A stretch of 64,000 nt of DNA from Patescibacteria group bacterium (GTDB lineage Bacteria; Patescibacteriota; Microgenomatia; UBA1400; PJMF01), in contig JAHDXH010000002.1 of the NCBI GenBank assembly GCA_023382875.1, positions 69,724-133,723 of the forward strand, read 5' to 3'. Numbering within the stretch: position 1 is the first letter of the stretch; each line of letters opens with the position of its first letter. The translations under genes and the position numbers were made by a program. This document shows, in pieces, positions 633 to 59,735 of this stretch. Below the pieces are notes generated by a model that saw only the letters and a program-made list of their open reading frames with translations, was not told the DNA's origin and did not search any database.

Positions 633-3458
633 TTATGCTAGCTTTAATCTTTCACCTTTTGCAAGTTTAGTTTTGGTTTTTTCTTCAATCGCTTGTTGCC
701 ATGCACTTGGCCACTCTGGACATTCAACTGTAACAATTTTGTTGACATCTAATCCAGCTTCTTTTCTTAAACTCTGAATAGAGCGCATTAGTTCTCTGGC
801 CTCACCCTCAGCTTTTAATTCTGGAGATAAATTGAAGTCGAGGTTGATAGAAATTTCTCCATCTTCGTTTTGCCAAACCACATCTTTGACATTGAGTTCA
901 CTCATTAATAACTCTTTGAGGTGAGAAAACTCTGCTGGCTGTGGGCCGGTCACCGTCAACAATGACAATGGTTGTCTTACTCTGACTCCCTGATCTCTCC
1001 TAGCACTATGGGTTAGCTCAGTAACTTTTTGGATTGTTTCCATTTGTTTGGTGAGTGATTCGTTTTTTAGTTGAGCATACGAGCTAAACTCTGGCCAATT
1101 GGTGTGATGAATAGAAGTTGTTTCATCTGTCATGCTTTGGTGTAAAGTTTCACTAAAGAATGGAGTAAATGGCGCATAAAGTTGAGCTAGAGTGTATAGG
1201 GTGTGTCCTAAAACTTGGCCAGCTTCTTTATTATCTTTTAATCTCTCGCGGGACAATCTTAAGTACCAATTAGACATATCAGCTATAAAATCGATCAACA
1301 AACGGCTAGATCTAACTAAATCATAATTGTTCATGTTGGTTGTAACTTCTTCAATCAAAGTAGCTAATCTAGCCAATAACCATTGATCCAAAATATGTTT
1401 TGGCTTAGCTGGCACGGCTTTGAAATCTAAACTTTGATCAGCAAAGCTTTGGTAGAAGCTGAAAACATTCCACCAAATTACAAAAACTTTGCGACGTAGG
1501 TCGGCCACTTCTTTTTCTGAAAAATTAAGATTTTCCGCTTTTAAAACTGGGGAGCTAGACATGTATAAGCGCAAACTATCTGCACCGTATTTATTGATCA
1601 CAACCGCAGGATCTGGATAGTTCATCAAGCGCTTGCTCATTTTTTTGCCATCTTCAGCTAAAACAATTCCGTTGACGATGACGTTTTTGAAGGCAGTGGA
1701 ATTTTTAATACCGCCAGCAATGACGTGTAAGTAATAAAACCAAGCTCTAGTTTGGTCAACACCTTCGCCGATGAACTCAGCAGGGAAGTTTTGCTCAAAA
1801 GTATCTTTGTTTTCAAAAGGATAGTGAGCTTGACCATAGGGCATAGATCCAGAGTCAAACCAAGTATCGATGACGTCAGGAACACGCTTCATTGTTTTGC
1901 CACACTTTTGGCATGGCATGGTAACTTTATCAACGATATGTTTGTGAAGATCAGTTACTTTTACACCAGAATCATTTTCAAGTTCGCTAACTGATCCATA
2001 AACTTTACTTTCACCACATTCACATTTCCAAATTGGAATGACGCTAGCCCAAAATCTTTGTCTAGAAATTGACCAATCTTTAGCACCTTTTAGCCAATTG
2101 CCCCAGCGGCCTGTTTTAATATGGTCAGGAGACCAATTAATATCTTCGGCTAATTTTAAGAGCTTATCTTTGATTTTAGTAACTGCTACAAAATAACTAC
2201 CTGTAGCATAATTAAGTAGTGGGGTGTCACATCGCCAGCAGTGTGGATAGGAGTGAGTGACTTTGAGTTTGCTCCACAATGAATCATGGTGTGCTAGATA
2301 TTTAATGATTTCAATGTCGGTTTGTTGCGGATTGTCTTTTGGCTTGACTTCTAGATCGGCAAAGTCAGTAACTTTGCTGACAAAGCGACCATTCATACCA
2401 ACATGTTGGATTAATTCAACGTTTTCAACTTTACCAACTTTGTAGTCGTCTTCACCAAAGCCAGGGGCGATGTGCACCACGCCAGTGCCATCTTCGCTGG
2501 AGACAAACTCAGCTCCAACCACACGGAAAGCATTAGCGGTGCCTTTGTAATATGGGAAAAGTGGCTCATAGTTTAGGTCAACCAAATTTTCTCCAGTAAG
2601 AGTTTTGATAACTTCAATCGCGTTTTGACCTTTGACAAATTTCATTCTTTCTTCGGCTGCTAAGTAGAAGTTTTCTTCATCGGCTTTTTTGAAGAGTACG
2701 TATTTCATTTTTGGATTAACCGCGAGCAAGAAGTTGCCTGGTAATGTCCATGGAGTAGTGGTCCAAGCCAAAACAAAAGTTGGTTTATCCAAATTAAGTT
2801 TTTCTTTGGCGTTGGTAACTTGAAATTTTGCGACGACAGAAATATCAGTGACATCTTTGTAGCCTTCGGTAACTTCAGACTGTGACAAAGTAGTTTCACA
2901 ACGAGGACAAATGTGCATGGAGCGGTGATCTTCATAAACAAGTCCATTGTCATAAAGTTCTTTAAAGACCCACCAGACTGATTCCATAAAACTTAAATCC
3001 ATGGTCTTGTAGTCATTTTCCATGTCTGCCCAGCGACCAAGTCGCTTGATCATGACTTTCCAATCACTGACGTAACTCAAAACTTTGGAGCGACAAACTT
3101 CGTTAAATTTATCCACACCCAACTCTACGATTTCTTTTTTTTGAGTGATGCCCAATTCTTTTTCAGCAATGTTTTCGATTGGTAAACCATGGCAATCCCA
3201 ACCCCATTTTCTTTCGACTCTTTTGCCGCGCATGGTCCAATAACGTGGTACTACATCTTTCATGGTACTGGCTAGTAAATGTCCATAGTGCGGCAGACCA
3301 GTAGCAAAGGGTGGTCCGTCATAAAAAACATAACCATTTTTGGGATCGCGCATTTCAATTGATTTTTCAAATGAATGATTATCTTCCCAATATTTTTGGA
3401 CTTCTTCTTCTAATTTAGAGAAGTCTGGTGTTTTGCTAAAGTCTGTTACTTTTGGCAT
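633..3458 (-). CDS. ileS: isoleucyl-tRNA synthetase, type 2 (archaeal/eukaryote-like)
   Basis: 941 aa with HYGH (PHYGHLL) and KMSKR (KMSKRLMNYPDP) class I motifs, an editing domain and an eukaryote-like C-terminal region. Stop TAA at 633-635. Confidence 0.95.
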   Translation of the reverse strand: MPKVTDFSKTPDFSKLEEEVQKYWEDNHSFEKSIEMRDPKNGYVFYDGPPFATGLPHYGHLLASTMKDVVPRYWTMRGKRVERKWGWDCHGLPIENIAEKELGITQKKEIVELGVDKFNEVCRSKVLSYVSDWKVMIKRLGRWADMENDYKTMDLSFMESVWWVFKELYDNGLVYEDHRSMHICPRCETTLSQSEVTEGYKDVTDISVVAKFQVTNAKEKLNLDKPTFVLAWTTTPWTLPGNFLLAVNPKMKYVLFKKADEENFYLAAEERMKFVKGQNAIEVIKTLTGENLVDLNYEPLFPYYKGTANAFRVVGAEFVSSEDGTGVVHIAPGFGEDDYKVGKVENVELIQHVGMNGRFVSKVTDFADLEVKPKDNPQQTDIEIIKYLAHHDSLWSKLKVTHSYPHCWRCDTPLLNYATGSYFVAVTKIKDKLLKLAEDINWSPDHIKTGRWGNWLKGAKDWSISRQRFWASVIPIWKCECGESKVYGSVSELENDSGVKVTDLHKHIVDKVTMPCQKCGKTMKRVPDVIDTWFDSGSMPYGQAHYPFENKDTFEQNFPAEFIGEGVDQTRAWFYYLHVIAGGIKNSTAFKNVIVNGIVLAEDGKKMSKRLMNYPDPAVVINKYGADSLRLYMSSSPVLKAENLNFSEKEVADLRRKVFVIWWNVFSFYQSFADQSLDFKAVPAKPKHILDQWLLARLATLIEEVTTNMNNYDLVRSSRLLIDFIADMSNWYLRLSRERLKDNKEAGQVLGHTLYTLAQLYAPFTPFFSETLHQSMTDETTSIHHTNWPEFSSYAQLKNESLTKQMETIQKVTELTHSARRDQGVRVRQPLSLLTVTGPQPAEFSHLKELLMSELNVKDVVWQNEDGEISINLDFNLSPELKAEGEARELMRSIQSLRKEAGLDVNKIVTVECPEWPSAWQQAIEEKTKTKLAKGERLKLA

Positions 3459-17084: not shown

Positions 17085-18902
17085 TTATATAACTAAGTTT
17101 ATTAAATTGATGGTTTTAAGTAAGTTGGTTGTTATTTCTTCTGACAACGGAGTTCTGGAGAAGGTTTCAATGATTTGTTGTTTGATGTTGAATTGTTGTG
17201 GTAGGTCAGAAATTTCAGCTTGTTTGGCTTTGGTAAGAAGATAATCAAAAACTGGCCAAAATTTTCCAAAAGGGTTTGAATAATAGTTTTCAAGTTTGTC
17301 AATTAATTCTTTCCATTGGCTATTGTTTTCACTTTCAGCATTCGGACTTGGGTTGACCATTGTTTCGCTGGCGGGATCAAAATTAAGTTGCCACGTTTTA
17401 GTGCTTTCATTTTCAACGACTAGCTCATCGGTCAAAACTTGACCTGATTGACTGTAACTATAAAAACTTACATTTGTTGTTTCTAGAGAATGGTTAACAA
17501 TTTCAATTTTGTAATTACCTTGTTTTGGTTTTCTAATTTGAGTGATTTTCCAGTTAGTTTCTTGACCAGAAATTGGGTCAACAATTTTTTCTTCAAATTG
17601 TTCTATTTCCAGTGTAGTAGCGGGATCAGTGTTGATTATTATTTCAACATCTGGTTTTGTGACAAAGAGTAAATAACTTAAATCTGTATAGCTTGGTGTA
17701 AAAAGTCTGGATGATAGCAATTCTTTTCCATGTTGTTTGAAGTTTCTAAAAATATAATAAGGATCGAGGATAGTAAAATCTTGATTTTCTTGGTTATAAC
17801 CATTGGCAACCAAAAAGTGACCAGTAATGTTAAAAATGAGGGGTAAATTTTGAGTAAGTGCTTCGACTTGTTTTGTGAGATCACTGCCCACCAATCGTTG
17901 GTATTCTAATTTTGGCGTTCCATATCTAAGGTGAATGGCGGTGCTGAGTCTGGAGATTGCTAGCCAATTTAGCAAGCCATCACCGATATAGCCGTCGATT
18001 TGGTTTTTTAGCCATTCATTTAAACTGGCCGGTGTTATTTCTTGACCATCAGGTAAAAAATTTAATTGATAATAACGCATGACCATAGCCGCGGCAGTTA
18101 AAGCACAACCCCATCTGTCGATGGTTGGATTTGGTGACCAGAGTTTGGCAGAATCATATTCAAGTTGCGACCATTTGACATCGGTTTGTTTGAGTAGGGG
18201 AACTTCTAATTCATCTGTCAGTGTTTGAGGTAGAGAAAAAACTTGCAAGTTATCAAACGAAGACACAGATCTCTTGCTACCCAAGCTAGTTTTTAAGGCA
18301 ATGGTTTTGCTTCCTGCTGCCAGTGGCTGTTGATCGTAAACATTGAGAACTTTTTGGCCATTAATAAAAACAATTAAGCGCTGATTTTGATACTTAATGG
18401 TAAAGTGATAAATTTCATTGGCCAAAAATGGGAAGGTAGTGTGATTATTTTCCAGTGGTTGAGAAAGCCCCGCGACCACTTTTTGAGCTGTAATGCCTGT
18501 GCCATAGAGTTTGAGGTCATACCAATTGTCCTTATCTTGCCACCACCAAACAAAATTCCGATCCATGTTGATTGACTCATCAAGTCTCCAATCGAAATCG
18601 ACTTGCCAATTCGGCGAAGAGATTATTTGATTTGAGCTTGGTGTTATTGCAAGAGTACAGCCAACGCCATCAACAACAAGTTTTGCCCAGCCGTTTTCAA
18701 TTTGCCATTTGGCAGGCGATAAAACATCCAAACAATGATTCCAGCCACCCGAACCTTCATTTTGAGCAACGACCCAAGGGCTAATGCTAGCTCTGTCAAA
18801 CTGGTCAACTACTAGAGTAGTGTTTGCCCTTATAATAGGTGCGTAAAGATGACTAAAAAATTCTACGACCAGCAAGGTAAATAAAACGGCGATTGGTCTC
18901 AT
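17085..18902 (-). CDS. secreted multidomain protein: concanavalin/LamG-like N-terminal domain + C39-like papain-fold cysteine peptidase domain
   Basis: Signal peptide MRPIAVLFTLLVVEFFS. Cys motif RWGCALTAAAMVMRYYQ and His motif NITGHFLVANGY, matching peptidase_C39-like catalytic contexts. N-terminal W-rich jelly-roll-like segment. Confidence 0.55.
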   Translation of the reverse strand: MRPIAVLFTLLVVEFFSHLYAPIIRANTTLVVDQFDRASISPWVVAQNEGSGGWNHCLDVLSPAKWQIENGWAKLVVDGVGCTLAITPSSNQIISSPNWQVDFDWRLDESINMDRNFVWWWQDKDNWYDLKLYGTGITAQKVVAGLSQPLENNHTTFPFLANEIYHFTIKYQNQRLIVFINGQKVLNVYDQQPLAAGSKTIALKTSLGSKRSVSSFDNLQVFSLPQTLTDELEVPLLKQTDVKWSQLEYDSAKLWSPNPTIDRWGCALTAAAMVMRYYQLNFLPDGQEITPASLNEWLKNQIDGYIGDGLLNWLAISRLSTAIHLRYGTPKLEYQRLVGSDLTKQVEALTQNLPLIFNITGHFLVANGYNQENQDFTILDPYYIFRNFKQHGKELLSSRLFTPSYTDLSYLLFVTKPDVEIIINTDPATTLEIEQFEEKIVDPISGQETNWKITQIRKPKQGNYKIEIVNHSLETTNVSFYSYSQSGQVLTDELVVENESTKTWQLNFDPASETMVNPSPNAESENNSQWKELIDKLENYYSNPFGKFWPVFDYLLTKAKQAEISDLPQQFNIKQQIIETFSRTPLSEEITTNLLKTINLINLVI

Positions 18903-36320: not shown

Positions 36321-36359
36321 TTTTTTGTTCTGAACAGTTAATTAAGATATAATATCGGT

Positions 36360-37310
36360 ATGTTGAAAAAAAATGGCTGGTTACTAATTTTTTCCTTTGT
36401 CTTTCTTCTGGCGGGAGCAATTTTGGCGCGCCCAGCTTTGGCTCAAAAATCACTCCTTCAAGCTGAGTTGGAAATTATTAATGATGAAGCAACTGATGCG
36501 GCTCAGGCCACTAGTGAAGGTACTTTGGCCACCCCTTCGGCTGAGGTGGTAGAAAAAATTCAGAAAAAAACTGAAGAAGATATTACTCAGCCTACCGTTA
36601 AGCAAAAAAGCAAACTTGCACAATATCTCGATGACACTCCAGTTGGTCCATTAAGTTGGAATAACTTTCTTCAACATGCTATCCGCAACGCTATTGCTGA
36701 TGGTGTAGCACCAAATATTATTGTGTTGGTTTTGCTTTTCCCACTGGTTGCTTCTTTAATTGCTGCTTCAAGACACATTATTGGTTTGAGAGGCTTTGGT
36801 ATTTATATTCCTGCTGTTTTAGCTGTGGCTTTGGTATCAACGGGCATTATGGAGGGTTTGGCCATTTTTGGTGCGATTGTGGTGGTGGCTATTTTTTCTA
36901 AAAAATTCCTTAGAAAAACCAAGCTATCTTACTTGCCTAGAACGGCCATGTTGCTTTGGTTGATTTCGATGGGTATTTTCGCAGTTATATTGCTTTCGCC
37001 AACCTTTGGTTTGGTTTCATTGATGAGTATTAACATCTTCCCGATTTTGATTTTAGTGCTCTTGTCGGAAAACTTCTTAGATGCACAATCTCGTTCTAAG
37101 CAGTCAGAAGCGATTGCTTTGACTGTTGAAACTTTAGCTTTGGCCTTTGCCTCAAGTTTGCTTTTGCGCTGGGATATTATGCAAAAATTTGCCTTAACTG
37201 AGCCAGAGCTTTTAATTTTTACTATTGCTTTGATGAACGTGATCATTGGCAAATTTACCGGTTTAAGACTTAAAGAGTGGTTTAGATTCCGATCATTGAT
37301 CGAAGAATAA
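36360..37310 (+). CDS. polytopic membrane protein (signal peptide + acidic periplasmic segment + ~6-7 TM helices); candidate partner of the ATP-grasp/QEGLA module
   Basis: MLKKNGWLLIFSFVFLLAGAILARPALA, then a hydrophobic core GLRGFGIYIPAVLAVALV... It lies 3 nt upstream of the ATP-grasp gene. Resemblance to the 7TM domain usually fused to an inactive transglutaminase is inferred from context and was not verified. Confidence 0.45.
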   Translation: MLKKNGWLLIFSFVFLLAGAILARPALAQKSLLQAELEIINDEATDAAQATSEGTLATPSAEVVEKIQKKTEEDITQPTVKQKSKLAQYLDDTPVGPLSWNNFLQHAIRNAIADGVAPNIIVLVLLFPLVASLIAASRHIIGLRGFGIYIPAVLAVALVSTGIMEGLAIFGAIVVVAIFSKKFLRKTKLSYLPRTAMLLWLISMGIFAVILLSPTFGLVSLMSINIFPILILVLLSENFLDAQSRSKQSEAIALTVETLALAFASSLLLRWDIMQKFALTEPELLIFTIALMNVIIGKFTGLRLKEWFRFRSLIEE

Positions 37311-37312
37311 AC

Positions 37313-38599
37313 ATGTCAGTCAAACCATCCCATATTTTGGGACACAATGCCAGAAATACCTATACAAAGCTCAATACTTTTGCAGCTAAAAAATACGGTT
37401 TTTCTAAATTAAGAACCAAAGAATTACTTCGCGAGCACAACATTCCCACTGCTAGTGTCTATCATATTTTTGAATCAATTAACGATGTCCAAGAAGTTAA
37501 CTGGAACAACTTTCCATTACCTTTCGTCGTTAAACCAGCTTCGGGTAGTGCGGGCAAAGGCATTGTTTTGTTAATCAAAAAAACTGCAGATGGTAAAAGT
37601 TGGATTGATAATGAAGGTCATGAGTGGAGTAGAGAAGATTTAAACCTTCATGTATCTAACATTCTTGATGGGGAGTTCAGTACTTGGGGTGAGAATCACA
37701 AAGCAATTGTGGAGGAAATGATTACACCTCATCCTGCCTTAGCTAAGTATGCTTATAGAGGTACTCCAGATATTAGAGTGGTGGTTTTCAATAGTGTGCC
37801 TGTGATGGCAATGACCAGAATCCCTACTAAAATGTCTCAAGGCAAGGCTAATTTGGATTTGGGTGCGATTGGATTGGGTATCGATATGGCCACAGGTGTA
37901 ACGACTTATGGGGTTAGTGGGAAAGCAGAAAAAATTACTCACTTTCCCAATTCCAAGAAAAAAGTTAACGGTATTCTAATTCCAATGTGGAGCAGAGTTT
38001 TGGAAGTAGCAGTTCAAGCTGCTAACGCTGCTGGCTATACCTTCATGGGAGCTGATCTTTTTATCCATCAAGAAAAGGGTCCAATGATTGTGGAGCTTAA
38101 CGGTTTTCCTGGTCTATCAATTCAGTTGGCCAATCGAGCTGGACTTAAAAAAAGATTGGATAGAGTAGAAGGTATTGAAGTTCGAGACGCCAAGCATGGT
38201 GTGAAAATTGCCCAAGCTTTATTTGCAGAAAATTTTGCTGACAAAATTAAAATTGAAGAGGGGCTCAAAATTATTTCTACCAATCCCACTGTTTCAGTTC
38301 ATGGTGATGACAAGAAATGGTATTCGGCCGAAGGCAGAGTCAACACTGGTCGTTATCGTTCGGCTATTTCAGAGGATTTGGCTGACCAGTTGGGCCTAGT
38401 CGATATCGAGGACTTACTATGGAGACAGCAAGAAGGTTTGGAGGGTAAGTTGCCAGTTGTTGAAGTACAATTCAGTCTCAAGGGTGTTAAACATAACACG
38501 GCTATGGTGGTGACTAAATCGCTTAATAAAACCAAGTATCAGGTGGAGCTGGGACGAAGAGATCTCCAGGGTTATTTGATTGGTGAAATTGAAAGTTAG
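37313..38599 (+). CDS. ATP-grasp enzyme, alpha-L-glutamate ligase-related (RimK-like) with ~130 aa C-terminal extension
   Basis: PFVVKPASGSAGKGIVLLIKK and an ATP-grasp core (MIVELNGFPGLS). 428 aa. Confidence 0.7.
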   Translation: MSVKPSHILGHNARNTYTKLNTFAAKKYGFSKLRTKELLREHNIPTASVYHIFESINDVQEVNWNNFPLPFVVKPASGSAGKGIVLLIKKTADGKSWIDNEGHEWSREDLNLHVSNILDGEFSTWGENHKAIVEEMITPHPALAKYAYRGTPDIRVVVFNSVPVMAMTRIPTKMSQGKANLDLGAIGLGIDMATGVTTYGVSGKAEKITHFPNSKKKVNGILIPMWSRVLEVAVQAANAAGYTFMGADLFIHQEKGPMIVELNGFPGLSIQLANRAGLKKRLDRVEGIEVRDAKHGVKIAQALFAENFADKIKIEEGLKIISTNPTVSVHGDDKKWYSAEGRVNTGRYRSAISEDLADQLGLVDIEDLLWRQQEGLEGKLPVVEVQFSLKGVKHNTAMVVTKSLNKTKYQVELGRRDLQGYLIGEIES

Positions 38600-38610
38600 A
38601 ACTATTTTCT

Positions 38611-39576
38611 ATGTTAACTTTGGCCAAATTAGTTCCAATCAACTTGGAATCGGAAAAACAAAGATTTTTTGCCGAAAATGGTAACTATAATCCTCAGTTT
38701 GAGTATGAAGAGAATTTTCATTCTGACGAGCTCTTGGTTCATGGTTTGCCCGAAAAGGACTTGTCAGCTTTAGCCGACAAGATTGTTCATGAAGATGTGG
38801 CTGTACAATTAGCAGCAGATGCTAAAGAAAAAGTTGACGGACTTTTATCTCAGGAAGCGGTGACTAAAAAGGTGGAAGCCTTTTTGCAATTACACGACTT
38901 AGCAGAGCGGTATTCCATTACGTGGTCGAGCAGTTTTGTTGCGAGAACTTCAATTACGGCTACAAATATTAAGCTAAGAATTCCGGCTGCCTTTAGAAGC
39001 CAAGAAGATTTGTTAGGTATGCTTTATCATGAGGTAGGCACTCATGCTTTGCGCCGAGTTAATTATGAAAAACAACCTTGGTTCAAAAAGAAAAAACAAT
39101 TTGGTTTTGGCAGTTATTTGAGAACTGAAGAAGGTTTGGCCAGCTTGCATTCACTTTTGCCCTTAAAAAATAAATCAGCTTATGGTTCAGCGCTGAGGTA
39201 TTTGGCGGTCGCTCATGCTCAAAAAGAAGGGTTTGCTGACACTTATAAATTTGTTAGTCAGTACGTTGATGATCCAGAGCGACGTTGGGCTATTACCTTC
39301 AAGCAAAAAAGAGGGTTGACCGATACTAGTTTGCCCGGTGGTTATACCAAAGATTTGGTCTATTTTGCAGGCTTAGTGGAAGTGTGGCGTTATTTAAACG
39401 AGCGCAACTTTGAAGTCGATGGTCTCTATTTTGGTAAGTTGGCCAAAGAAGACGTGGAAAAAGCTAAGGAAATAAATCCCGCTTTTGAACCATTGTTGCC
39501 AAGTTTTTATGTTGCTGATAAAGATAATTATCGCCTAAAAATGCAAGAAATTGGTCAAATTAACCATTTGTTTTAG
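38611..39576 (+). CDS. DUF1704 / QEGLA-motif protein (zincin-like putative metallopeptidase; flavohemoglobin expression-modulating family)
   Basis: MLYHEVGTHALRRVN is an HExxH-type motif, and TEEGLASLHS is the QEGLA-motif equivalent. Confidence 0.6.
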   Translation: MLTLAKLVPINLESEKQRFFAENGNYNPQFEYEENFHSDELLVHGLPEKDLSALADKIVHEDVAVQLAADAKEKVDGLLSQEAVTKKVEAFLQLHDLAERYSITWSSSFVARTSITATNIKLRIPAAFRSQEDLLGMLYHEVGTHALRRVNYEKQPWFKKKKQFGFGSYLRTEEGLASLHSLLPLKNKSAYGSALRYLAVAHAQKEGFADTYKFVSQYVDDPERRWAITFKQKRGLTDTSLPGGYTKDLVYFAGLVEVWRYLNERNFEVDGLYFGKLAKEDVEKAKEINPAFEPLLPSFYVADKDNYRLKMQEIGQINHLF

Positions 39577-40420
39577 TTAAAAACTTCATGATTTCTTGAA
39601 CCACATCGATATTGGTGCAGGCTTCAAAGCCTTTATATTGCGGGCTGCGATTAACTTCCATCACTGACCACTGTTGACTCTTTTGGTCAAAAATTAAATC
39701 GACACCAGCAATATCGTAACCAACAGCTTTGGCAGCTAAAACAGCTAATTTTGATAGTTCATCATTGAGTGGATATTCCTCAGCACTACCACCCAAGGAA
39801 ACATTATTGCGGAATTCTTCTGGATCGTTGCTGCTTCTTTTTATGGCTGCCAATGGTTTTGAGCCAATGACAATCACTCTTAGATCGCCATCATTGGGTA
39901 GGAAGGGTTCAAAAACTAAAACTTCATCGTTGTATTCTTCGACGACTTTTTGCGCTTCTTCTTTAGTTTTACACAAGAAAACACCTTTGCCTTGGTTGAG
40001 TGCGCCTCTTTTGATAATAAGGGGATATGAAGTGTTGGTACTTCGCCCAGTCTCACCAACTGCCACCACTGATGGGACGATGGGTAAGCCATGTCGACTC
40101 AGTTCAAAAAGCTCATAGCTTTTGCTGTCAATCCAACTTAAACCGTTTTCTAGAACTTGGTCGAAAACAGCAATTTGGTGGAGTTTGGCATACTTGGCAA
40201 TTAAAGTAGCTATCTCTTCTCGACCACTTAAGGTTCTCAAATAAATGGCGTCAAAATTGGTCAAATCCTGACCCTTAACTTGAATTGTTATTTCTTTATT
40301 CAAGTTAACAACTACTTCTTTGTAGTTGGCCAAAGTAACGTGATGACCCATTTTTTCGCCTTCAGTTTGGTAGCGAGTGGTAGTAGGTCGATTAAATTTT
40401 TCCAGAATCAATATTTGCAT
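39560..40420 (-). CDS. rimK: RimK-family ATP-grasp ligase (ribosomal protein S6 glutamate ligase-like)
   Basis: LIIKRGALNQGKGVFL, DLRVIVIG, GVDLIFDQKSQQWSVMEVNRSP. Start chosen at MQILILEKF; the ORF track extends to 40459. Convergent with the DUF1704 gene and overlaps it by 17 nt. Confidence 0.8.
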   Translation of the reverse strand: MQILILEKFNRPTTTRYQTEGEKMGHHVTLANYKEVVVNLNKEITIQVKGQDLTNFDAIYLRTLSGREEIATLIAKYAKLHQIAVFDQVLENGLSWIDSKSYELFELSRHGLPIVPSVVAVGETGRSTNTSYPLIIKRGALNQGKGVFLCKTKEEAQKVVEEYNDEVLVFEPFLPNDGDLRVIVIGSKPLAAIKRSSNDPEEFRNNVSLGGSAEEYPLNDELSKLAVLAAKAVGYDIAGVDLIFDQKSQQWSVMEVNRSPQYKGFEACTNIDVVQEIMKFLTKTNG

Positions 40421-40462
40421 GCGCGTATTATATCGAAAATTTCGTTTATATAGTGACAATCT

Positions 40463-51762: not shown

Positions 51763-51848
51763 CGCCGCGGTGGTGAAATGGTAGACACGCGAGACTTAAA
51801 ATCTCGTGATAGCAATATCATGCGGGTTCGAGTCCCGCCTGCGGCACC
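51763..51848 (+). tRNA. tRNA-Leu (anticodon TAA), CCA encoded
   Basis: Cloverleaf folds. 7-bp acceptor GCCGCGG/CTGCGGC with one G-T wobble. Anticodon loop CTTAAAA. Long variable arm. T-arm GCGGGTTCGAGTCCCGC. Confidence 0.9.
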
Positions 51849-51905
51849 AGTGAGAAGTTAGAGATTAAAAATTGAATTATAGCCAGCCAAATTTTTGGCA
51901 AAGAT

Positions 51906-51979
51906 CGGGGAATAGCTCAGATGGCTAGAGCGCGCGGTTTGGGACCGCGAGGCCGCAGGTTCGAGCCCTGTTTCCCCGA
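51906..51979 (+). tRNA. tRNA-Pro (anticodon TGG)
   Basis: Acceptor CGGGGAA/TTCCCCG, anticodon stem CGCGG/CCGCG with loop TTTGGGA, T-arm GCAGGTTCGAGCCCTGT. No encoded CCA. Confidence 0.9.
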
Positions 51980-51987
51980 CATAATAA

Positions 51988-57950: not shown

Positions 57951-58023
57951 CGGAGTATAGCGCAGATGGTAGCGCGCAGCGTTCGGGACGCTGAGGCCAT
58001 CGGTTCGAGTCCGATTACTCCGA
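57951..58023 (+). tRNA. tRNA-Pro (anticodon CGG)
   Basis: Acceptor CGGAGTA/TACTCCG, anticodon stem CAGCG/CGCTG with loop TTCGGGA, T-arm ATCGGTTCGAGTCCGAT. Confidence 0.9.
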
Positions 58024-58057
58024 CAAAATTTGCCAAACTTTTTTTTATTTTAAAGCT

Positions 58058-58066
58058 TGGTATAAT
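58058..58066 (+). promoter_or_regulatory. extended -10 promoter TGGTATAAT, 13 nt upstream of tRNA-Gly
   Basis: Identical element and spacing as upstream of tRNA-Leu. Confidence 0.5.
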
Positions 58067-58078
58067 CTAATTCATCTT

Positions 58079-58150
58079 GCGGGTGTAGCTCAACGGTCAG
58101 AGCTCCAGTTTTCCAAACTGGTGACGAGGGTTCGACTCCCTTCACCCGCT
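58079..58150 (+). tRNA. tRNA-Gly (anticodon TCC)
   Basis: Acceptor GCGGGTG/CACCCGC, anticodon stem CCAGT/ACTGG with loop TTTCCAA, T-arm GAGGGTTCGACTCCCTT. Confidence 0.9.
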
Positions 58151-58201
58151 CCCAAACTGATCGATTTGCGCAATATTTCCAACAATTTAAAATGAAATTA
58201 T

Positions 58202-59659: not shown

Positions 59660-59735
59660 GCCAGAGTAACTCAGTTGGTAGAGTAGCGGTATCGTAAACC
59701 GCAAGTCGCGGGTTCGATCCCCGCCTCTGGCTCCA
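59660..59735 (+). tRNA. tRNA-Thr (anticodon CGT), CCA encoded
   Basis: Acceptor GCCAGAG/CTCTGGC, D-arm ACTCAGTTGGTAGAGT, anticodon stem GCGGT/ACCGC with loop ATCGTAA, T-arm GCGGGTTCGATCCCCGC. Confidence 0.85.

Follow-up and report, generated by a model that had tools for sequence, protein, structure and literature searches.

A Patescibacteria gene cassette for an RloB-like membrane protein ending in glutamates, an RloC-like ligase and a MATCAP-type peptidase: a candidate system for adding and trimming C-terminal tails

Introduction

Which molecule could be lengthened by an ATP-grasp ligase and shortened by a metallopeptidase when both enzymes are encoded next to a polytopic membrane protein? 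This question is raised by a cluster of four open reading frames (ORFs), here called P1 to P4, on contig JAHDXH010000002.1 of a Patescibacteria group bacterium (assembly GCA_023382875.1). P1 is a membrane protein with seven transmembrane (TM) helices (7TM), P2 an ATP-grasp ligase, P3 a putative metallocarboxypeptidase of the MATCAP type (formerly DUF1704) and P4 a RimK-type ligase; all positions refer to the 64-kb window, i.e., the whole stretch of DNA that was analyzed. The initial annotation had read the cluster as a ligase, a metallopeptidase and a membrane partner that add or trim amino-acid tails on a surface or ribosomal target. Its four ORFs were recovered at the same positions, and its four family assignments hold in Pfam and NCBIfam profile searches, far above chance. 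At the family level its functional reading is still the best one, with the activities being predictions; the target that it named is revised here. Because the 7TM protein carries an invariant oligo-Glu C-terminus, the membrane protein itself appears to be the likelier target. The annotation's placing of the module in a reduced genome agrees with the 100% identity of P2 to a protein of a 'Patescibacteria group bacterium' metagenome-assembled genome.

Systems of this class are already known, from rloABC (2025), from RimK/RimB and from TTL/MATCAP, so the annotation's view of the association as uncharacterized does not stand for the class, given the rloABC genetics and the MATCAP enzymes, although it does for the architecture described here. 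In Pseudomonas aeruginosa, RloA is a secreted (periplasmic) retropepsin that cuts poly-Glu, whether it lies inside a protein or at the C-terminus; rlo mutants are defective in their cell shape, their sensitivity to beta-lactams and their tolerance of osmotic stress; and the defects of a triple rloA mutant (osmotic, biofilm, antibiotic and shape) are suppressed when rloB or rloC is deleted (Lormand et al., mBio 2025, PMC12239564). The ligase and the 7TM protein therefore act together, upstream of the poly-Glu hydrolase. The same authors found no genome-encoded poly-Glu candidate for Rlo, and 96% of the RloB hits were from Proteobacteria (PMC12239564). The DUF1704 family includes human MATCAP/TMCP1 and TMCP2, which are tubulin C-terminal carboxypeptidases and deglutamylases: where acidic residues precede, they take off the C-terminal Tyr of tubulin tails and afterwards Glu, and they also trim back poly-Glu side chains (PMC10499314). 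In our literature search, no paper dealt with what a bacterial MATCAP/DUF1704 member does.

Results

An oligo-glutamate tail on the membrane protein

P1 ends in two Glu residues, and an ending of two to five Glu was found in 118 of 120 clusters of P1 homologues (EE in 38, EEE in 43, EEEE in 35 and EEEEE in 2). The Glu run always follows RF[RK]x[ILM][IMV], with RFRS[IL][IM] staying fixed while the number of Glu varies from 2 to 5; the two clusters without such a run are a truncated fragment and a protein ending ...EEEQE. A scan of one genome per species for close relatives of P3 gave 57 species-level loci (L001-L057), and 50 of the 52 7TM orthologues in these loci likewise end in two to five Glu. 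The 7TM proteins of three deep-branching cassettes end ..DTEE, ..DSEEE and ..NNNNE. As a control, an EE ending was found in 7 of 549 other gene-like ORFs of the loci, and six of these seven were the ligase itself (L007, L023, L026, L028, L053 and L055), which leaves one in 543 unrelated ORFs. P1 is also the sole Glu-terminated ORF among the 65 in the window. These counts are evidence for the tail of P1 being a selected feature. We propose the tail peptide GLRLKEWFRFRSLIEE-COOH as a candidate acceptor for the ligase, and the tail as both the acceptor site of the ligase and the substrate of the carboxypeptidase.

The C-terminus of P2 itself is acidic (..GEIES, window 38585-38596). The end of the ligase could be an auto-modification site or a pseudo-substrate.

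The topology of P1 was predicted from hydropathy and charge distribution. An N-terminal anchor or signal (residues 8-26) is followed by a segment placed outside (residues 27-115), by seven TM helices and by a basic tail predicted to be cytoplasmic, with five K/R within the last 20 residues. As the initial annotation had proposed, the extracytoplasmic segment is acidic (14 D/E vs 8 K/R). It had also noted the lack of a transglutaminase domain, and this was borne out: the Pfam search gave zero matches to a transglutaminase domain in residues 27-115, and the match of P1 to the NCBIfam model for RloB (NF052267) is limited to the C-terminal 7TM part (positions 315-507, the last 190), at 68 bits vs a cut-off of 900. 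P1 thus does not have the make-up of RloB, in which an inactive transglutaminase domain is joined to seven TM helices. It is 26% identical to the 7TM domain of RloB from Legionella and Aeromonas, in an alignment that runs to the C-terminus. No solved structural relative of the 7TM fold was found.

A tblastn search of P1 against plasmids returned three hits only. An unannotated 7TM_transglut-like stretch lies on the Halobacterium sp. DL1 plasmid (CP007061.1, 107115-107669; L060); it is 29% identical to P1 residues 129-312 (1e-6) and falls within a 589-amino acid (aa) ORF.

A separate transglutaminase gene inside the window was considered and rejected, there being none among the ten large ORFs scanned. 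A gene for a separate PF01841 Transglut_core protein (633-700 aa) occurs in several Paceibacteria genomes; it sits two genes 5′ of the cassette, with uvrA on one side and uvrC on the other (L063, 228-2135; L065, 1208-3310; JGI locus, 1454-3355). Its product might provide in trans the transglutaminase module 'missing' from the 7TM protein.

The ligase and its degenerate retropepsin domain

The best Pfam family of P2 is PF14397 ('sugar-transfer associated ATP-grasp'; 2.6e-56). Residues 6-304 match TIGR02291 (rimK_rel_E_lig) at 5.6e-70, with a score of 235.8 bits vs an equivalog cut-off of 314.2, and residues 1-291 are 33-35% identical to RloC of Legionella and Aeromonas (two rloABC operons). Across Patescibacteria, P2 is 65-78% identical, an unusually high degree of conservation. 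It has no signal peptide.

The initial annotation had described a 130-aa C-terminal extension of the ATP-grasp enzyme. The extension is there (~124 aa beyond the part matched by TIGR02291), and what had been missed is its nature, that of a degenerate RloA/RimB-type retropepsin. A Pfam search of the single P2 extension gave no match, a profile of the extension gave noise only against PDB sequences, and its hhalign comparison with one RloA sequence was not significant. When homologous extensions were scanned individually, 16 of 22 matched retropepsin families. The fold of the domain matches DUF785 and PA0462 of P. aeruginosa (annotated as a periplasmic aspartic peptidase), with retroviral proteases ranked after them, which places it in the retropepsin fold of clan AA, DUF785/RimB type. 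Because of these matches to retropepsin families, the C-terminal domain of P2 is, on profile evidence, the retropepsin module of the rlo/rim systems fused to the ligase.

The catalytic D-T/S-G triad is replaced by NTG in P2. Among 120 P2 homologues, the position of the catalytic Asp is taken by Asn in 104 and by Ser in 4, while 11 have DTK and one has the canonical DTG, so that the catalytic Asp is replaced in ~90% of them. Two arginines after the motif (NTG-R-x-R-S; R36 and R38) are invariant. Asn for the catalytic Asp is the very substitution that inactivates RloA, in the catalytically inactive control D48N (PMC12239564). The domain is probably a pseudo-protease that binds acidic tails. It does not qualify as RloA, which is a secreted retropepsin with a signal peptide and a catalytic DTG. 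In a few loci (L016, L005 and L008) the short acidic end of the ligase ORF is replaced by a longer tail of low complexity (..GDVGEDNSKGQSSK, ..GDIEKDRNQGQNL).

A MATCAP-type peptidase

P3 belongs to PF08014, with 82.6 bits vs a gathering cut-off of 27 (E 3.5e-23). Against TIGR02421 ('QEGLA') it scores 88.5 bits (5e-25) vs a cut-off of 338.65, and is thus a homologue and not an equivalog member. Its score is higher against human MATCAP (KIAA0895L; PDB 7z5g), which phmmer matches to residues 4-319 at 129.7 bits (1.8e-36) and blastp aligns with 32% identity over 330 columns.

The motif HEVGTH of P3, which had been described as HExxH-like, is in fact HExxxH, the same as in human MATCAP/TMCP1, where it reads HEIGTH. 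The site of the QEGLA-type motif had been placed correctly; its letters differ, reading TEEGLA here, and TEEGLASLHS is identical in both proteins. An HExxxH motif with EEG as the proposed third ligand has been described for TMCP1 (PMC10499314). In P3 these residues align one for one with those of the solved human MATCAP, so that at the sequence level the metal-binding site foreseen in the initial annotation is in place, and H140, E141, H145 and E173/E174 are invariant in 30 aligned homologues. P3 has no signal peptide.

Across the related loci MATCAP is 50-60% identical. An exhaustive search of 1.84 billion representatives returned 1,749 relatives of P3, among which long eukaryotic MATCAPs (≤84% identical to the human protein) are interleaved, at 28-35% identity, with proteins of ~315 aa. 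One locus (L068, 188-3175) encodes a 314-aa MATCAP homologue (P0300), 36% identical to human MATCAP, whose neighbors on a compact, eukaryotic-looking contig are genes for tubulin and RhoGEF/VPS9. Some 'prokaryote-sized' MATCAP representatives are therefore eukaryotic.

Conservation of the cassette

In the 57 species-level loci, the genes for a 4TM protein of the PF04020 family, the 7TM protein, the ATP-grasp ligase and MATCAP follow each other on the same strand. ORF-by-ORF BLAST showed order and strand to be the same in essentially every locus with enough flank, with gene coordinates that abut or overlap and a full-length ATP-grasp ligase of 427-429 aa. The co-conservation of the three co-directional genes (7TM, ATP-grasp, MATCAP), on which the initial annotation depended, thus held in every related genome examined. 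The upstream flank is variable, and MnmA is usually found downstream, at a variable distance.

The trio was also found in three deep-branching cassettes with differing neighbors, whose MATCAP is 34% (L061), 32% (L063) and 36% (L067) identical to P3, and it was recovered as well when the look-up was started from P1 homologues and not from MATCAP. A 98%-identical P1 occurs in the same gene order in GCA_021462985.1.

Relatives carry the labels Pacebacteria, Paceibacterota or Patescibacteria, and many genomes with the cassette are deposited as 'uncultured Pseudomonadales', 'Methylococcaceae' or 'Flavobacteriaceae'. The latter are probably mislabels and not evidence for Proteobacteria, because these loci are 45-55% identical to Paceibacteria loci and have their synteny, and some of the isolates are named '...PATE-15/16'. 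As judged from these sequences, the variant is coherent and widespread in Patescibacteria.

Upstream and downstream neighbors

Beyond what the initial annotation had listed, the PF04020 4TM gene upstream of P1 is co-conserved with the cassette. Among the loci L001-L057 with enough 5′ flank, nearly all have it immediately 5′ of the 7TM gene; it is also upstream in L063, L065, L066 and the JGI locus, and is missing from L061 and L067. The cassette probably includes it as a fourth member, at the upstream end. That PF04020 might point to a prophage was rejected, as the gene is a fixed chromosomal neighbor amid housekeeping genes.

Downstream, P4 contains the Rimk_N pre-ATP-grasp domain, scores 132.5 bits against TIGR00768 (1.7e-38) vs a cut-off of 143.4, and matches the RimK proteins of Pseudomonas (7qyr; 4e-24) and Escherichia coli (1e-20) over its full length. 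It is also present in the near-identical genome L066. One or two extra ATP-grasp genes, on either strand and either RimK-type or PF13535 ATP-grasp_4 (~400 aa), occupy the slot between MATCAP and MnmA in ~15 of the 49 loci with enough downstream sequence; in many loci the slot is empty or holds TruB, and two or three extra ATP-grasp genes are present in L067 and the JGI locus. RimK had been counted as part of the system by the initial annotation. As a core member it was rejected, since the slot is filled in ~15 of 49 loci only, by differing ATP-grasp families and on either strand; RimK is an accessory, optional and variable member. The recurrence of unrelated ATP-grasp ligases at one spot argues for a functional link.

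Features of the locus and of the window

The coordinates are collected in Table 1. The 11-nucleotide (nt) gap between P2 and P3 is as first annotated, and so is the convergent overlap of P4 with the 3′ end of P3, which covers 17 nt at the MATCAP stop; the gap between P1 and P2 is 2 nt (TAA-ac-ATG) and not 3 nt. The true start of P4 is probably the ATG at 40420, giving 286 aa, because the RimK_N match begins only at residue 14.

Table 1. Positions of the cassette genes and their motifs in the window.
Feature	Position	Strand	Basis
PF04020 ('Phage_holin_4_2', formerly DUF360) 4-TM protein, 120 aa	35958..36320	+	Pfam 8.9e-23
P1, RloB-like 7TM protein, 316 aa	36360..37310	+	PF14402 7TM_transglut 4.6e-27
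P1 C-terminal tail motif RFRSLIEE-COOH	37284..37307	+	E2-E5 ending kept in homologues
P2, ATP-grasp ligase with C-terminal extension, 428 aa	37313..38599	+	PF14397, TIGR02291
P2 RloC-like ATP-grasp domain, residues 1-~311	37313..38245	+	motifs VVKPASGSAGKG and D..ELN intact
P2 C-terminal retropepsin-like domain, residues 312-428	38246..38599	+	RimB/RloA (DUF785) fold
P2 NTG in place of catalytic DTG, residues 344-346	38342-38350	+	sequence
P3, MATCAP-type (formerly DUF1704) putative metallocarboxypeptidase, 321 aa	38611..39576	+	PF08014 3.5e-23
P3 HEVGTH, residues 140-145	39028-39045	+	HExxxH metal motif
P3 TEEGLA, residues 172-177	39124-39141	+	EEG motif, proposed third metal ligand
P4, RimK-type ligase, convergent, 299 aa from TTG	39560..40459	-	PF08443 6e-32, TIGR00768

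A promoter and terminator scan of the locus returned fewer sites than shuffled controls and was uninformative. A perfect TATAAT lies at 36348-36353, 6 nt 5′ of the ATG of P1 and within the 39-nt gap after the PF04020 gene, with TTGTTC 17 nt upstream of the hexamer; the pair is absent from the listing of the consensus scan. It may be an internal promoter that yields a nearly leaderless P1 mRNA.

Elsewhere in the window, cell-wall genes (LCP, rfb, PBP) occur nearby. A 605-aa protein with a Peptidase_C39_2-like (papain-fold) domain (3.4e-11) is encoded at 17085-18902 on the minus strand, positionally unrelated to the cassette. Five tRNA genes (Leu-TAA, Pro-TGG, Pro-CGG, Gly-TCC and Thr-CGT) lie at 51764-51980, 57951-58152 and 59660-59735, and a GC bump at 52-54 kb is immediately 3′ of the first tRNA pair. 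Besides tRNA, the Rfam scan of the window found zero families at the gathering score.

Discussion

Comparison with known systems

The cassette resembles rloABC in that a homologous 7TM domain (RloB) is encoded beside a homologous alpha-L-glutamate-ligase-like ATP-grasp enzyme (RloC), and in that a ligase would be opposed by a hydrolase acting on acidic tails. It differs in several respects. The 7TM protein of Patescibacteria lacks the transglutaminase-like periplasmic domain; the retropepsin forms part of the cytoplasmic ligase and lacks its catalytic Asp (NTG), whereas RloA is secreted; and the hydrolase predicted to be active is a cytoplasmic protein of the MATCAP type. In the Legionella and Aeromonas rlo operons examined, MATCAP is missing, and a retropepsin-type gene lies upstream of rloB, with a lipoprotein-type signal visible in the ORF of Aeromonas and none in that of Legionella. 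The conserved oligo-Glu C-terminus of the Patescibacteria 7TM protein is likewise absent from the RloB proteins of these operons, which end ..AKARS (Legionella) and ..PGKDK (Aeromonas). The taxon differs too, RloB hits being mostly from Proteobacteria.

The C-terminus of S6 (RpsF), ending -EE, is the RimK acceptor. A C-terminal -EE is likewise the setting of MATCAP action on tubulin (PMC10499314). In that system an ATP-grasp enzyme adds alpha-linked Glu to the -EE C-terminus and a dedicated peptidase removes it; P4 is of the RimK type, and the C-terminal domain of P2 has the fold of RimB. In contrast to RimK/RimB/S6, however, the candidate acceptor here is the tail of a membrane protein, the core ligase is an RloC-type paralogue, and the trimmer is predicted to be an exo-acting zinc-type carboxypeptidase, whereas RimB is an aspartic endopeptidase. 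The likeness to the tubulin tail cycle (TTL/TTLL with MATCAP1/2 = TMCP1/2, KIAA0895L/KIAA0895) extends over the whole catalytic domain of P3, which shares HE[IV]GTH ... TEEGLAS[L]HS; in addition, the proposed substrate tail is -EE, as in detyrosinated alpha-tubulin, and ATP-grasp ligases would oppose the peptidase. The present system is bacterial, predicted to be operonic and known here from sequence, with no tubulin or microtubule-binding regions and with a RimK/RloC-like ligase in place of a TTL-like one.

Iyer, Abhiman, Burroughs and Aravind (Mol Biosyst 2009) reportedly used comparative genomics to describe proteobacterial neighborhoods of TIGR02291, TIGR02421 (QEGLA) and 7TM-inactive-transglutaminase genes and predicted a role in peptide ligation and modification. 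The same three protein superfamilies are associated here, but P2 and P3 fall well below the TIGRFAM cut-offs (235.8 vs 314.2 and 88.5 vs 338.65) and the domain architecture differs. Four features would appear to be new to descriptions of such systems: the lack of a transglutaminase domain in the 7TM protein, a fusion of ligase and pseudo-retropepsin, a MATCAP-type trimmer and an invariant oligo-Glu tail on the membrane partner.

A proposed cycle of tail addition and trimming

We propose, with about an even chance of being right, that the cassette is a Patescibacteria-wide variant of RloB/RloC that runs a cytoplasmic cycle of adding to and trimming a tail on its own membrane component. This is the simplest model in which each conserved feature has a part. 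Read from the sequences, what the enzymes do, which residue they add, how the tail serves as substrate and what the cell gains would fit together as follows. The 7TM protein would expose to the cytoplasm a basic C-terminal tail ending in two to five genomically encoded Glu, and the RloC-like ligase would use ATP to add amino acids to this free C-terminus. By analogy with RimK acting on the -EE of S6, the added residue would most likely be alpha-linked Glu, though it might not be Glu. The degenerate RloA/RimB-type retropepsin domain of P2 may hold the acidic tail instead of cutting it, and P3 would remove residues singly from the C-terminus, as its eukaryotic relatives do on tubulin -EEY and poly-Glu tails. 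Tail length would determine how active the 7TM protein and the adjacent PF04020 4TM protein are in the envelope, or what they interact with. The extra ATP-grasp ligases, here the convergent RimK, would be optional and may make the additions faster or more varied. Solely by analogy with the rlo phenotypes may the system be linked to homeostasis, be it osmotic or of the envelope.

Several points weigh against this proposal. In Proteobacteria RloA is periplasmic and RloB has no E-tail, and therefore the tail as substrate cannot be the ancestral or general mechanism of Rlo; the real product could be something exported. The acidic C-terminus of the ligase is an alternative acceptor. The 7TM protein of L031 ends ..DDQAE, and that of one of the deep-branching cassettes has only one E at its end. 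P2 may add an amino acid other than Glu, given its sub-cut-off TIGR02291 score and the fact that TTL-type ligases add Tyr and not Glu. Finally, the operon structure is predicted from gene spacing only.

Alternative explanations

Four other explanations were ranked by decreasing likelihood. The first, possible but rather doubtful in our judgment, is that the ATP-grasp enzyme makes a cytoplasmic poly-alpha-glutamate or short peptide that the 7TM and PF04020 proteins export or anchor, while MATCAP degrades the surplus from its C-terminus; the E-tail of the 7TM protein would then be just a primer, a docking mimic or a pseudo-substrate. Homeostasis of free poly-alpha-Glu and osmoprotection were raised by Lormand et al. 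as one possibility for Rlo (PMC12239564), the periplasmic RloA of Proteobacteria implies an exported substrate, and a polytopic 7TM protein with a conserved 4TM neighbor resembles a translocator. However, MATCAP and the inactivated retropepsin are both predicted to be cytoplasmic, so that nothing would be placed to process an exported polymer, and the Glu run of variable length at the exact C-terminus of 118 of 120 homologue clusters would go unexplained.

It is unlikely, secondly, that MATCAP and the ATP-grasp enzymes act in a RimK/RimB-like manner on S6 or another E-terminated protein, with the membrane proteins regulating or localizing them. RimK and RimB do act on ribosomal protein S6 (PMC12239564), and a RimK-type ligase adjoins MATCAP here and in several relatives; yet about two in three loci have no RimK-type gene, whereas the 7TM/ATP-grasp/MATCAP trio does not vary. 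No ORF of the 64-kb window other than P1 ends in E, and rpsF was not found within the window.

Also improbable, and placed after the soluble target, is a role of the ATP-grasp enzyme in adding amino acids to a cell-wall or glycopolymer precursor, with MATCAP editing C-termini that resemble stem peptides. The name of the best Pfam family of P2, the shape, beta-lactam and osmotic defects of rlo mutants (PMC12239564) and the nearby LCP, rfb and PBP genes would all be in keeping with such a role, but conservation of the cassette does not extend to the envelope genes, only MnmA and TruB recurring among its downstream neighbors, and each of the characterized relatives (RimK, RloA, MATCAP) has as its site of action an alpha-linked Glu or Tyr at the C-terminus of a protein. 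That the genes are functionally unlinked and are neighbors only through a kept Patescibacteria gene order, as the likewise syntenic housekeeping genes MnmA and TruB downstream might suggest, is very improbable, since the trio persists with different flanks in the deep-branching cassettes, the gene coordinates abut or overlap, and the 7TM/ATP-grasp pair is also operonic in Gammaproteobacteria, with genetic epistasis.

Implications

An extension of the proposed tail cycle, which we hold tentatively and at well below an even chance, is that the cassette is a prokaryotic counterpart, possibly the evolutionary source, of the tubulin 'tail code', in which the dead retropepsin would serve as reader and tail length would gate a hitherto unrecognized 7TM device for the envelope or for osmotic homeostasis, perhaps reporting cytoplasmic glutamate and ATP. 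Here a bacterial MATCAP goes together with an ATP-grasp partner and an -EE tail, mirroring the tyrosination/glutamylation cycle of tubulin, and this bears on the origin of the eukaryotic enzymes. As for the substrate of Rlo, the Patescibacteria variant puts an oligo-Glu C-terminus on the membrane partner and the tail-handling modules in the same predicted compartment, which makes a testable hypothesis. Should the tail-code reading be true, a reversible code of this kind at the C-terminus of a bacterial membrane protein would be the first, and it would provide a candidate substrate for orphan Rlo-type ligases. Rlo-type systems have effects on the osmotic tolerance of P. aeruginosa, its sensitivity to antibiotics, its biofilms and the shape of its cells, and the conservation of the ligase at 65-78% identity in a lineage of ultra-small genomes suggests an important function in the envelope or in homeostasis.

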